This document shows positions 1 to 56,301 of a stretch of 64,000 nt of DNA, piece by piece (the first letter of the stretch is position 1; every line of letters begins with the position of its first letter). The notes below the pieces were generated by a model. That model saw nothing but the letters and a program-made list of their open reading frames with translations. It made no database searches and was not told where the DNA came from. The position numbers were made by a program, and so were the translations under genes. The stretch comes from a virus: positions 1-64,000 of the IMG/VR virus record IMGVR_UViG_3300032898_000001; one strand, written 5' to 3'.

Positions 1-147
1 CCGCCTGATTCGTTCGACGGGAAGGTTCAGAGACTATGTACGGAGCTCCTCAAATGAGGATGAAGATATAGTCCGATCTGCATGGAAATATGCAGAACTG
101 AGCAGAAATGTCTCAGTCCATCGTATTACACGATGAGTAACAAAATG
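1..147 (+). mobile_element. Group I intron 1 (3' part) in the major capsid protein gene
   Basis: R motif TTCAGAGACTA (26-36), S motif AAGATATAGTCC (63-74), P8 hairpin CTCCTC-AAAT-GAGGA, P9/P9.1/P9.2 hairpins, terminal omega-G at 147 (GTAACAAAATG). Confidence 0.9.
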
Positions 148-163
148 ACCCCGTGTACACCGT
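148..163 (+). CDS. 16-nt micro-exon of major capsid protein
   Basis: ACCCCGTGTACACCGT joined to 1306 reads (T)AC CCC GTG TAC ACC GT|C TAC CGC AAC AAG = YPVYTVYRNKFPRPQGQG, in frame with ORF 1352..2632; ends in U paired to G174 in P1. Confidence 0.8.
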
Positions 164-1305
164 CAGTAACTAGGCGGCCTCAGAGGGTGACCTCTGAGTA
201 AACACCTCGCTGTATCGGTGAATCTCCTTCACGTACACAAGTAGTGATAAGATACCTCTTGTGACAGAGGACAATACCGAGGGAACCCCAGAGCCCGGGG
301 ACTCCGTAGAGACTACACGCGAGGCATCTGCTCCATACCAGGATCTCGATGAGGTCCTTCGTACCGTTCACCACGTTCGTGATCTAGCTAGGTACTACGA
401 CGTCACCGTTTCCGAGATGACGGCCTTGCTGAAACAACGAGGCATCATCCGGTTCACTCGTCGCAGTCAGGTCGACTGGTCTCACCTCAAGCAGCTCTAC
501 GAGGAGCTCCAGTCAATCCCCGCCGTAGCTCGACGACTCGGGACAACCGAGAAGATCACGTATGCGGAGCTAAAAGATCAAGGTATCCAACTGCGATCTC
601 GAGGCCATCTCAAGGGACAGAAAAAGTCCGCTAGCTGGCGAGAGGCCAGTGCCAAGAACTGGGATGATCCAGCTTGGCGAGAAGAACAACGAAGGAAGTG
701 GCTTGAGAAAAGTCAGTCCCGACGAAAGGGACCGGGCGTCTCACCTCTCGAGAAGTTCTTGCACACGGCTCTTCGACAGGCGCGGGTCTCGTTCAACGCG
801 AACGAGGTCGTGCTCGACGGTAGGTACGTGGTCGACGTTTTGCTCACTCAGCGGAACATCGTCATCGAGGTAGACGGAAGCTCTCACTGGCTTCCAGAAG
901 CTCAAAAGAACGACAAGGTCCGCCAAGCTGAACTTGAGCGAGCGGGTTTCATCGTTCGTCGAATCGACCACGTAGACGTCGTCAACAACGCACACGGTTT
1001 CGTTGCTGATCTGATGAATGAGTTTGATCTTCAACCCGAAGAGCATCCTCAATCGCGAGTTCGCAGCGACGCCGAGGCCTTTGGTGATCGAATGAACGCC
1101 CTTCGCTCCGACCCCGAAAAGAGTCGACGATGGCGGGAGAATCTCACTAAGGCACGTCGAGAACGAGCTGAACGAGAACGGCAGATGAAGATATAGTCCG
1201 GTCTGCATGGATCACGTGAAAACATGCAGAGTCAGGCAGAAATGACCTGACCACTCACCCACTCACTGAAAGTCAGTGAAACTCGTGGTGAGGGGTAACA
1301 GATCG
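164..1305 (+). mobile_element. Group I intron 2 with homing endonuclease in P8 loop
   Basis: P1 CCGU/GCGG, P2 CTCAGAGG..CCTCTGAG, P3 CCTCGC(205-210)/GCGAGG(319-324), R GTAGAGACTAC (306-316), P8 CATCTGC/GCAGATG, S AAGATATAGTCC (1188-1199), P9 region similar to intron 1, omega-G 1305. Confidence 0.9.
261..1196 (+). CDS. Intron-encoded Vsr-like/DUF559 (EDxHD family) homing endonuclease with N-terminal HTH/NUMOD-like DNA-binding segments
   Basis: SPLEK..YVVDV..IEVDGSSHW..DKVRQAELERAGFIVRRI motifs; lower GC than flanking capsid gene. Confidence 0.85.
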   Translation: MTEDNTEGTPEPGDSVETTREASAPYQDLDEVLRTVHHVRDLARYYDVTVSEMTALLKQRGIIRFTRRSQVDWSHLKQLYEELQSIPAVARRLGTTEKITYAELKDQGIQLRSRGHLKGQKKSASWREASAKNWDDPAWREEQRRKWLEKSQSRRKGPGVSPLEKFLHTALRQARVSFNANEVVLDGRYVVDVLLTQRNIVIEVDGSSHWLPEAQKNDKVRQAELERAGFIVRRIDHVDVVNNAHGFVADLMNEFDLQPEEHPQSRVRSDAEAFGDRMNALRSDPEKSRRWRENLTKARRERAERERQMKI

Positions 1306-2632
1306 CTACCGCAACAAGTTTCCCCGCCCGCAGGGTCAGGGCGTCAGCCGGATGGAGAAGGTGTTCACCGGCATCTCCGGTTCCCAGACCGGGGGCCAGA
1401 GCGTGCTCGACATCTCGATCGACGAGCTCGTCACCCAGACCAACAACAACGCCGGCTTCGGCACCTGGCCGCTCAACCTGCCGCAGGCGGGCAGCCAGAC
1501 CGAAGTCAACCTCAACGTCCCGTACCGGTTCTTCGGTCTGACCGAGCAGCTGTCCTGGCTCGCTCAGTTCGCTGGCCAGGGCTTCGAGGACATCTCGGCA
1601 CTCGCCAACCTCATCCTCCTGCAGGAGATGATGCTCGGCGAGGAATACCAGATGATCGCCGGCACCTCGGTGCCACTGGCCACCCCGGCCGCGCCGACCA
1701 TCACCCTGCGCACCGCCGGCTCCAACGAGACCGCCTTCACCACCGGCACGCTCACCGTGGAGGTCACGGGCGCGAACTACTGGGGTGAGACCGCGGCCTC
1801 CGCGGCCAGCAACAGCGTCACCGTCGGGGCCGGCCAGGTCGTCGACGTCACCATCTCCCCGGTGGCCGGCGCCCTGTTCTACAACCTGTACACCAACAAC
1901 GCCAGCGCCGGCTACAAGCAGCAGGTCACCAACGTCGGCGGCATCCGCTACACCCTGCAGGGCACCGCGTCGACCACCGGCACCGCGCCGGCCGCCGACA
2001 CCGGCACCAGCAAGGGCACCCGGATGGAGGGCGTCATCCCGACGCTCACCGGCCTGTCCGCCCAGGGCGGCATCTACCCGGCCGGCTGGCAGGGTGGCTA
2101 CGTCAACAACGCCGTCGGCTCGACCCTCAACTACAGCACCATCAACACCGTGCTGAAGGCCCTGTGGGCGACCAGCGGCAACAACCCGGGCTCGTTCAAG
2201 GCCGACCCGGCGGAGCTCATCTCCTCCGGCGTCGACATCGCGAACCTGTCCGACGACGTCATCGCCCAGGGCTCCGCTACCAACTACCGGTTGTTCATCC
2301 AGCAGTCGGAGACCGGCGGCGTCCAGACCGGTGCGGCCGTGGACGAGTTCCGCAACCCGCTCACCCGGTCCATCATGAAGCTGGTCGTGCACCCCTGGTA
2401 CCAGCAGGGCAACGCCGACCTGCTGACCTACCAGCTGCCGCAGACCTGGACCAACGTCGCCAACGCGTGGGAGATGACCTGCGTCCAGGACTACGTCTCC
2501 ATCGCCTGGCCAGTCATCGACGCGACCTTCCGCTACTCGATCTTCCTGTACGGTGCCATGGTCGCGCACGCCCCGCAGTACTCCGCCCACCTCGGCGGCC
2601 TGCAGTCCAGCAACACCACTCCGTACGCCTGA
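1306..2632 (+). CDS. Major capsid protein, final exon
   Basis: Open frame from 1307 (YRNKFPRPQGQG) into 426-aa ORF; LLQEMMLGEEYQMIAG helix typical of HK97-fold capsids; very high GC3; position before head-tail genes. Confidence 0.8.
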
Positions 2633-55025: not shown

Positions 55026-55096
55026 CACCTGGTCGAGGGATCGAACCTCGTTCTGCGCTTTTGGAGAGCGCCGTGCTGCCACTGCACCAACCAGGC
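55026..55096 (-). tRNA. tRNA-Trp(CCA)
   Basis: Cloverleaf; anticodon arm GCGCT-CTCCAAA-AGCGC; no encoded CCA. Confidence 0.9.
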
Positions 55097-55215
55097 CCGA
55101 CCGATCGCTCCCACGTAAACCGGGACGCCGTGTACCAGGGGCCAGGCCCCCGGCATCGCGCTCGCCTCCCGGACCATCTTCTCCATACCCCATCCCGGCG
55201 GTGGTCCGAGCGCGA

Positions 55216-55353
55216 TCAGTCGTCTGTCTCTCGAGGCTCATCGCAGTCGACGCAAGAGTCGAACCGCTCGCTGTCGATGTTGAACCGGTGCCCGTGCACC
55301 TCACACGCGGTCCACTCCGAGAAGTCGATCTCGTCTCGTTCCTGGGTCTCCAC
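55216..55353 (-). CDS. 45-aa Cys/His micro-protein inside the RNA operon
   Basis: GAGGAGG RBS, GTG; CEVHGH..CVDC. Confidence 0.5.
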   Translation of the reverse strand: METQERDEIDFSEWTACEVHGHRFNIDSERFDSCVDCDEPRETDD

Positions 55354-55509
55354 GTTTTGCCTCCTCTCTACGAACCGCGACGAGCCCGAACCAAACCACG
55401 TCTCGTCTCGAGGCACCCTGCAACGAATGTCGCGTTGGGCCGTCCCACCAGGAGGCCGTTCCTCGTCCTCCACGGCATGAGACTGGTCTCGCCGTGCCTC
55501 TTCCCTACG

Positions 55510-55580
55510 AGCCGTACCGGGGAATCGAACCCCGTCCCGCTGGTTGGAAGCCAGATATGCAGCCACTACACCAGTACGGC
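55510..55580 (-). tRNA. tRNA-Gly(TCC)
   Basis: Cloverleaf; CTGG-CTTCCAA-CCAG; U discriminator. Confidence 0.88.
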
Positions 55581-55685
55581 ACACGGGACGGTTTCTACCT
55601 CCGACGCCTCGGCGTGCATACCCCCATCGAGCTCGTTACCGATCCCGAACGGTCTAGCTCCGACGTACGTCCCTCGGACCTCACG

Positions 55686-55756
55686 TGCCCCACGCCGGGA
55701 TCGAACCGGCGACCACTGGATGAAAGCCAGCGATGTTGCCACTACACCAGTGGGGC
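55686..55756 (-). tRNA. tRNA-Glu(TTC)
   Basis: Cloverleaf; GCTGG-CTTTCAT-CCAGT. Confidence 0.88.
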
Positions 55757-55758
55757 GA

Positions 55759-55869
55759 GAAGAGGGTGACGGGAGTCGAACCCGCCCAGCGGACCGTCGT
55801 CCTTTTGGCGTACGCCGTCAGCCCTGACGCTCCGGGAGTCGAACCCGGATACTGCCGGTTACCCTCTTC
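55759..55869 (-). ncRNA. Double-T-arm tRNA-like RNA (no anticodon)
   Basis: Closing stem GAAGAGGGT/ACCCTCTTC; T-arms CCGGG-TTCGACT-CCCGG and GCGGG-TTCGACT-CCCGT. Confidence 0.65.
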
Positions 55870-55871
55870 AG

Positions 55872-55943
55872 CTGACCCGGGAGGACTCGAACCTCCAACC
55901 ACCTGGTTAACAGCCAGGAGCTCTGCCGTTGAGCTACGGATCA
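55872..55943 (-). tRNA. tRNA-Asn(GTT)
   Basis: Cloverleaf; CCTGG-CTGTTAA-CCAGG. Confidence 0.92.
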
Positions 55944-55947
55944 TTGC

Positions 55948-56079
55948 GTGGGCCTCTGCCGCTGAGGTACCGATCGTGATCGTTCTCACCGTACCCGGTC
56001 TTCCGCCACGCGGTCCTTCGGGTCGTGCTCGAGCGACCTGCCAAACGATCGAGAGGGACTCGAACCCTCGTCTTCCCAC
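55948..56079 (-). ncRNA. Circularly permuted tRNA-like RNA (YrlA-like topology)
   Basis: 5' GTGGG-AAGAC-[GAGGG TTCGAGT CCCTC]-TCGATCG-insert-CGATCGG-TA-[CCTC AGCGGCA GAGG]-CCCAC 3'. Confidence 0.7.
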
Positions 56080-56081
56080 CG

Positions 56082-56153
56082 CGCCATCGACGGGAGTCGA
56101 ACCCGCTGCCACCTGGCTGACAACCAGGCACTCTACCGTTGAGTTACGACGGC
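56082..56153 (-). tRNA. tRNA-Asp(GTC)
   Basis: Cloverleaf; CCTGG-TTGTCAG-CCAGG. Confidence 0.92.
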
Positions 56154-56158
56154 CTAGC

Positions 56159-56227
56159 ACGGTAGGGCTGCAACCCGCTGGGGAATCGAACCCCACCCTA
56201 CCGCTGACGACCGTGGCCACGGTCGTT
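56159..56227 (-). ncRNA. Mini T-arm structured element
   Basis: Palindrome ACGACCGTG/CACGGTCGT; stem GCGGTAGGG/CCCTACCGT enclosing TGGGG-TTCGATT-CCCCA. Confidence 0.5.
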
Positions 56228-56229
56228 TG

Positions 56230-56301
56230 TACCCCACGCGGGGATCGAACCCGCGTCTCCTGGCTGAGAACCAGGTGTGACTGCCACTGCACCAGTGGGG
56301 C
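56230..56301 (-). tRNA. tRNA-Glu(CTC)
   Basis: Cloverleaf; CCTGG-TTCTCAG-CCAGG. Confidence 0.88.

Follow-up and report, generated by a model that had tools for sequence, protein, structure and literature searches.

Group I introns in capsid genes are already known, as are short exons lying between phage group I introns. In the capsid gene of LittleE, a cluster J Mycobacterium phage, splicing was proven by reverse transcription PCR and N-terminal sequencing (Pope et al. 2013, PMC3706429), and the same paper cites a capsid-gene intron in Tuc2009. According to PMC10136302, which for Twort draws on Landthaler and Shub (1999), orf142 of Staphylococcus phage Twort contains several group I introns and a 23-nucleotide (nt) internal exon for which inclusion versus skipping is at issue, and the 23S rRNA gene of Coxiella burnetii carries two introns of different subgroups around a 34-nt exon. 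PMC11878797 and PMC12880540 describe, in the Bastillevirinae and the gut jumbo 'Jug' phages, essential genes with two or three group I introns together with many homing endonucleases, some of the PD-(D/E)XK type. The stretch analysed here, hereafter the window, comprises positions 1–64,000 of a 95,531-bp virus contig (IMG/VR record IMGVR_UViG_3300032898_000001), and all coordinates are window positions unless the contig is named. At its start lies a capsid gene in which two group I introns flank a 16-nt micro-exon and which is, we are fairly certain, spliced to a messenger RNA (mRNA) for a 608-amino-acid protein. The original prediction for this locus, made from the window sequence, had placed phage group I introns mostly in DNA-metabolism, terminase or lysin genes, a view that LittleE corrects.

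The locus shares with LittleE an actinobacterial phage setting, an HK97-type capsid gene with an interruption close to where the mature protein begins, introns preceded by U and ending in G, and an endonuclease gene. Indeed, the LittleE intron belongs to the family of the second intron described here (intron 2), with 87% identity over the segment from the 3' strand of P7 (P7') to P9.1 (positions 1184–1252) and a fit to the same P1–P6 structure. LittleE, however, has a single intron and no micro-exon, and its endonuclease gene, annotated as HNH, lies 3' of the core on the opposite strand, whereas in the present phage the open reading frame (ORF) is of the DUF559 type, occupies the P8 loop and shares the strand of the intron. 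No similarity between the LittleE capsid protein and the one studied here was detectable by tblastn. According to PMC10136302, the Twort introns are near-identical IA2 neighbours for which exon skipping has been observed, in contrast to the 16-nt exon, the different 5' halves and guides and the capsid location seen here, and the Coxiella case concerns a bacterial rRNA gene with no reading frame at stake. The targets in the Bastillevirinae and Jug phages are DNA polymerase, terminase and nrd genes, and the passages considered report no capsid hot spot. What is new, relative to the bacterial and phage cases cited, is the shorter exon of 16 nt and its location in a capsid gene, as well as the density of insertion sites in one gene family and a DUF559-type endonuclease frame that runs through the ribozyme core.

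The first and last 127 bases of the contig are identical, as in a circular assembly with a 127-bp terminal overlap, and the IMG/VR record lists terminal repeats and a CheckV completeness of 100%. Because of this overlap, the window begins within intron 1, the start of which sits at the far end of the contig. Exon 1 occupies contig positions 94769–95252, with a GTG start at 94769 that a good ribosome-binding site precedes, and ends in ...CGTCTGATCT. Intron 1 comprises contig positions 95253–95404 (152 nt) and window positions 1–147 on the plus strand (299 nt in total), terminating at G147. The micro-exon ACCCCGTGTACACCGT (148–163, plus strand, 16 nt, last base U163) supplies bases 2–3 of the Tyr163 codon, Pro-Val-Tyr-Thr, and bases 1–2 of the Val168 codon. 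It is followed on the same strand by intron 2 (164–1305, 1142 nt, terminal G1305), which carries an ORF in its P8 loop, and by exon 3 (1306–2632), which begins at C1306 with base 3 of the Val168 codon and encodes residues 169–608 and the stop. Joined, the exons form an in-frame coding sequence of 1827 nt for 608 amino acids. The end of intron 1, the limits of the micro-exon and of intron 2 and the start of exon 3 are exactly those of the original prediction. Logan contigs from the probable source run (1–1251, 1222–1594 and 1567–2700) match with zero mismatches, so that the window junctions 147/148, 163/164 and 1305/1306 are all bridged by an independent assembly.

Homology confirms both junctions. 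Homologues of the exon 3 protein number more than 1000; most are uninterrupted and 600–610 amino acids long, and 60 were taken into an alignment. The spliced product is colinear with about 50 full-length uninterrupted homologues and gapless at both junctions, across ...APSRLIYPVYTVYRNKFPRP... / ...GLVPFDLLAPSRLIYPVYTVYRNKFPRPQGQGVSRMEKVF..., as is the predicted junction peptide YPVYTVYRNKFPRPQGQG. A DNA contig from a soil metagenome provides an intronless relative, which aligns to exon 3 back to position 1307 and reads TCTCGGCTGATTTATCCGGTTTATACCGTT / ...TATCCGGTTTATACCGTT upstream; to judge from this alignment, the intronless allele adjoins exon 3 exactly at the predicted junction. These comparisons are in line with the proposal that splicing would join 148–163 to 1306 in the capsid frame. 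Each intron follows a U and ends in a G. The junction of intron 1 is unique, and that of intron 2 could be shifted by one base (C164 and C1306 being the same letter); we chose 163/164 and 1305/1306 because this is the only choice of the U...G form and hence the only one to obey group I rules. In-frame stop codons occur at both 5' junctions, as ATC-TGA across the first and as a TAG 9 nt inside intron 2, and unspliced RNA is therefore closed to ribosomes.

On the joined locus, intron 1 matches the Rfam model Intron_gpI (RF00028) over its full length with 69.2 bits (cut-off 50, E = 1.4e-15), and we identify it on this basis as a group I intron without an ORF. A seven-member alignment of its family, folded with RNAalifold, yields 70 consensus pairs, 44 of them compensatory, spanning P2, P4–P6, P7, P8, P9 and P9.1; within the window, the 5' strand of P7 lies at 32–36, P8 at 47–58, the 3' strand of P7 at 69–73 and P9 at 77–94. 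In P1 the guide GGAUC faces the exon 1 end GAUCU with a U.G pair at the splice site, as expected from the claim that a T must precede the first junction, and the ortholog on contig L076 pairs identically. The complete guide reads GGGG-AC-GGAUC, and its GGGG can pair with the CCCC of the micro-exon at 149–152 to form P10. In L076, which carries the sole other intron at this site, CGGA faces exon UCCG, a compensatory change within a comparison of two orthologs only.

A 53-nt insert was noted in the same contig (L076:2345–2397, the contig that also holds L146 and L168), upstream of the intron 1 ortholog by 22 nt. Like the introns, it is preceded by U and ends in G. It has a 5-bp P1 (exon GACCU/GGGUC), a P2 hairpin capped by a GUAA loop, an in-frame stop and no catalytic core; once it is removed, the protein again reads FDLLAPSRLI. 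There are two readings of it: a dead remnant within a gene that is broken, or an element whose splicing is assisted by the ribozyme next to it.

For intron 2, a structure comprising P1 to P6 was written from the window sequence and tested on an alignment (A3) of the 5' halves of 14 family sequences from six insertion sites in the capsid family, including the LittleE capsid intron, with slid partners and 500 shuffles as controls. Paired cells amounted to 93.2%, versus 42–48% with slid partners, and 24 of the 35 pairs had changed on both sides, a figure equalled by none of the 500 shuffles. The helices of this half are P2 at 179–198, P3 at 205–210/319–324, P4 at 215–219/276–280, P5 at 225–229/267–271 and P6 at 281–283/303–305. 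Across the ORF, the strands of P8 (CAUCUGC/GCAGAUG, 325–331/1181–1187) and P7 (GACUA/UAGUC, 311–315/1194–1198) pair, and relatives show compensatory variants. The guide UAG-GCGG (171–177) would specify both splice sites, GCGG pairing with CCGU at 160–163 (P1) and UAG with the CUA that begins exon 3 (P10); in the ORF-less relative L068 the latter contact reads AAU facing AUU. All four exon–guide pairs of P1 covary in the family, and the proposed U at the second 5' junction with its U.G pair is found as U163.G174 and in 13 of the 14 members. Taken together, the covariation and the pairing identify intron 2, at the level of predicted structure, as a group I intron. With Rfam, a relative at the same site that lacks the ORF reaches 34 bits (E = 4e-5). 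In addition, position 326 is joined directly to 1186 in a contig from the probable source sample, which lacks 327–1185 and represents an ORF-less relative of intron 2 in the same community.

The two sets of core motifs with similar P9 regions on which the original prediction was founded are both present, as a 5' element at 28–36 and 304–315 and AAGATATAGTCC at 63–74 and 1188–1199. Introns 1 and 2 moreover have in common a P7'–P9 stretch identical at 27 of 28 nt, beyond which the P9 and P9.1 hairpins are similar and share the CAGAAATG loop. Their 5' halves fall in two different families, and the two introns are therefore related only in the 3' module, to which the claim of kinship has to be restricted. 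The micro-exon would serve both ribozymes, as had been proposed, through the potential CCCC/GGGG (P10, intron 1) and CCGU/GCGG (P1, intron 2) pairings. These contacts do not overlap, and neither guide fits the exons of the other intron. In 13 introns at other sites a P10 complement likewise stands beside the P1 complement, matched to the local exon and changing in step with it. An exon of 16 nt that serves P10 and P1 is near the minimum that such an intron pair can share, and the locus lends itself to studying how exon skipping is avoided where group I introns stand in tandem.

The ORF of intron 2 (261–1196, plus strand, 311 amino acids from GTG 261) combines helix-turn-helix-like N-terminal parts with a DUF559 (Vsr-like, PD-(D/E)XK) nuclease domain, which matches Pfam PF04480 with 44.5 bits (cut-off 20.6) and contains the motif IEVDGSSH. 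This motif aligns with EADGGQH in a weak match to the endonuclease-like protein of PDB entry 3hrl. The stop codon lies inside the 3' strand of P7, and related introns carry homologous ORFs. We regard the product as a putative DUF559-type homing endonuclease. ORFs of the intron 2 type (window 261–334; L016, L071, L147 and L151) have in common an in-frame start codon (ATG or GTG) immediately before the 3' strand of P5 and stay open through P5', P4', P6, P7, P3' and P8, such that some 25 codons are at the same time part of the ribozyme core. No such start is present in the L068 intron, which has no ORF.

Predicted structure supports the capsid identity assigned to this gene. An AlphaFold model of exon 3 built on a 76-sequence alignment reached a predicted local distance difference test score (pLDDT) of 90.3 and a predicted template modelling score (pTM) of 0.88. 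Foldseek returned 83 matches to it at E<=0.001, and the best 50 of the 83 are almost all phage capsid proteins, together with one encapsulin of the same fold; SPO1 (3.6e-11) is followed by Pa223, SU10, VP1, D3, HK97 and T5. Gene order agrees with an HK97-fold major capsid protein in a head module. Upstream lie genes for a portal-MuF-NUDIX fusion, an ADP-ribosyltransferase-bearing protein and a 937-amino-acid zinc-ribbon protein, and downstream lie tail tube and tape measure genes. Pfam had no family for the protein or for ten distant homologues, profile searches against the PDB gave no capsid match, and PHROG 13692 has no assigned function. The part encoded by exon 1 (160 amino acids) probably forms a scaffold-like N-terminal domain. 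Residues 121–235 of exon 3 (window ~1667–2011) are confidently predicted as an all-beta insertion domain, the only part that was folded in a shallow-alignment AlphaFold model (pLDDT 48), with a weak Fn3-like sequence match (3mpc).

Under the mechanism that we propose, a single pre-mRNA would contain exon 1, intron 1, the 16-nt exon, intron 2 and exon 3, and both ribozymes would splice themselves out in the usual pair of transesterifications to leave the mRNA for the 608-amino-acid protein. Each intron would be directed to its splice sites by a guide sequence of its own. Because the guides neither overlap on the micro-exon nor fit each other's exons, the introns should splice independently and in either order, and skipping of the exon, with its 16-nt frame shift, should be disfavoured. 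Ribosomes on unspliced RNA would stop at once, at the TGA of the first junction or the TAG in intron 2. Intron 2 would be mobile through its DUF559-type endonuclease. The capsid subunit is usually among the most highly expressed proteins of a phage (PMC3706429), so both introns must splice efficiently.

Several observations weigh against this interpretation. The group I covariance-model scan that had been suggested as a check was positive for intron 1 and failed for intron 2, which has no whole-intron Rfam match: searched whole and in two halves, only the 3' part scores (15.9 bits, E = 0.038), and the 5' half yields nothing usable. Rfam misses it because an 860-nt insert with the 311-amino-acid ORF fills the P8 loop and because the 5' half is divergent; this half also found no match among isolated phages by blastn. 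The P10 and P1 guides of intron 1 are 2 bases apart, which is less tidy than in its relatives. A strict pattern scan of IMG/VR found the twin arrangement at sites 163 and 168 (numbered by capsid residue) in no other contig, and introns at site 163 elsewhere only in the L076 contig, so that persistence of the twin over evolutionary time cannot be shown. Two metatranscriptome runs contained no contig joining the exons and only parts of intron 2 or its ORF and conserved intron cores. These RNA contigs cover intron-like pieces only; transcription of the phage is not shown by them, nor do they give evidence against splicing. The matching parts of intron 2 and its ORF, in contigs of soil metatranscriptomes from studies other than that of the phage, are 192–342 (a 151-nt piece with one mismatch) and 443–817, and the capsid exons are not matched; the contigs could derive from intron RNA after excision, from another phage with a related intron or from carried-over DNA.

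The lack of an observed spliced RNA would also be expected if the introns were decayed and no longer spliced, with the gene either dead or supplying its capsid from a separate 161-amino-acid N-terminal piece and the 426-amino-acid ORF that starts at ATG 1352. These are exactly the pieces that gene callers report: the public call here is P0001, a truncated ORF of 426 amino acids, just as the original prediction expected of automatic annotation, and its nearest truncated homologues are P0002 (95% identity), P0003 and P0008. The Met of ATG 1352 is, however, replaced by Ile or Gln in many homologues, and we ruled this codon out as the true start, reading it as an internal residue. The micro-exon and the 15 codons before ATG 1352 keep conserved protein sequence without a start codon of their own, both ribozyme cores and their guides are intact and covarying, and the genome is complete by CheckV, all of which makes decay very improbable. 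The effect on annotation is considerable, with gene calls in this lineage giving a 426-amino-acid protein of unknown function in place of the 608-amino-acid capsid protein and about a quarter of the related contigs being affected likewise. The arrangement could also be an assembly artefact, a chimera of intron-bearing alleles from co-occurring phages, and the sample does hold several related phages and introns, many diverged contigs and the ORF-less relative of intron 2; yet the Logan assembly bridges every window junction without a mismatch and read depth is even (13.7), and we give such an artefact hardly any credence.

A different outcome of splicing deserves more weight. The two introns could act mainly by exon skipping or as a joint ribozyme, leaving the full-length capsid protein a minor product and its expression throttled. 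Skipping is known for the 23-nt Twort orf142 exon and the 34-nt Coxiella 23S rRNA exon (PMC10136302), and the near-identical P7'–P9 module of the two introns also counts in favour of this reading. Loss of 16 nt would nevertheless shift the frame of an essential gene, the 5' halves are of different families and the guides differ and misfit the other intron's exons, a situation of differentiated splice-site recognition that the same paper reports as favouring exon inclusion. We consider predominant skipping unlikely and retain orderly removal of both introns as the preferred reading. An intein was ruled out by stops in every frame and the RNA-structured nature of the interruptions; of group II introns no features were found, both junctions being of the U...G form and intron 1 fitting the group I model.

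To place the locus in its family, we surveyed a non-redundant set of 116 related loci, drawn from IMG/VR, from JGI metagenomes and from two contigs of actinobacterial metagenome-assembled genomes. The capsid gene is uninterrupted in 86 and interrupted in the other 30, once in 16, twice in 10 and three or more times in 4, with 1 to 4 or more introns per interrupted gene. About 14 insertion sites could be distinguished, near residues 143, 146, 153, 159, 163, 165, 168, 240, 259, 269, 279, 566 and 580, and seven of them lie no more than 80 nt from the stretch that is most conserved; on this evidence the capsid gene of these phages is a hot spot for group I introns. All hand-mapped junctions allow a U...G solution, and each of the two intron families is present at several sites. 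Site 165 (CCCGU/CUAC) and site 168 (ACCGU/CUAC) are quasi-repeats, and one intron family uses both of them with an identical guide. Other micro-exons measure 20–29 nt, among them 29 nt between sites 159 and 168 in L147 and about 28 nt between 269 and 279 in L155, and L016 has a 75-nt exon between introns. With two intron families whose guides are tuned to about 14 sites, the capsid genes form a rich data set on the movement of introns to new sites.

A more speculative idea, which we think possible although the balance is against it, is that the capsid family serves as a battleground on which co-infecting soil actinophages contend through successive intron invasions. Intron endonucleases would then cut a competitor's capsid gene, a form of interference competition that has been shown for the PhiPA3 intron endonuclease (PMC11620839), and ORF-less introns would ride in the repair tract. 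Ribozymes separated by only 16–29 nt may need a fixed order of folding and action, and a crippled element, such as the P1–P2-only insert of L076, may even be rescued by the ribozyme beside it.

Two further features of the genome were noted. Contig positions 81402–91584 (L167:1403–11585) encode a 1739-amino-acid portal/MuF-like/NUDIX fusion followed by a 1292-amino-acid ADP-ribosyltransferase (Alt-like) protein, and a cluster of six transfer RNA genes lies on the minus strand at window 55026–56301.

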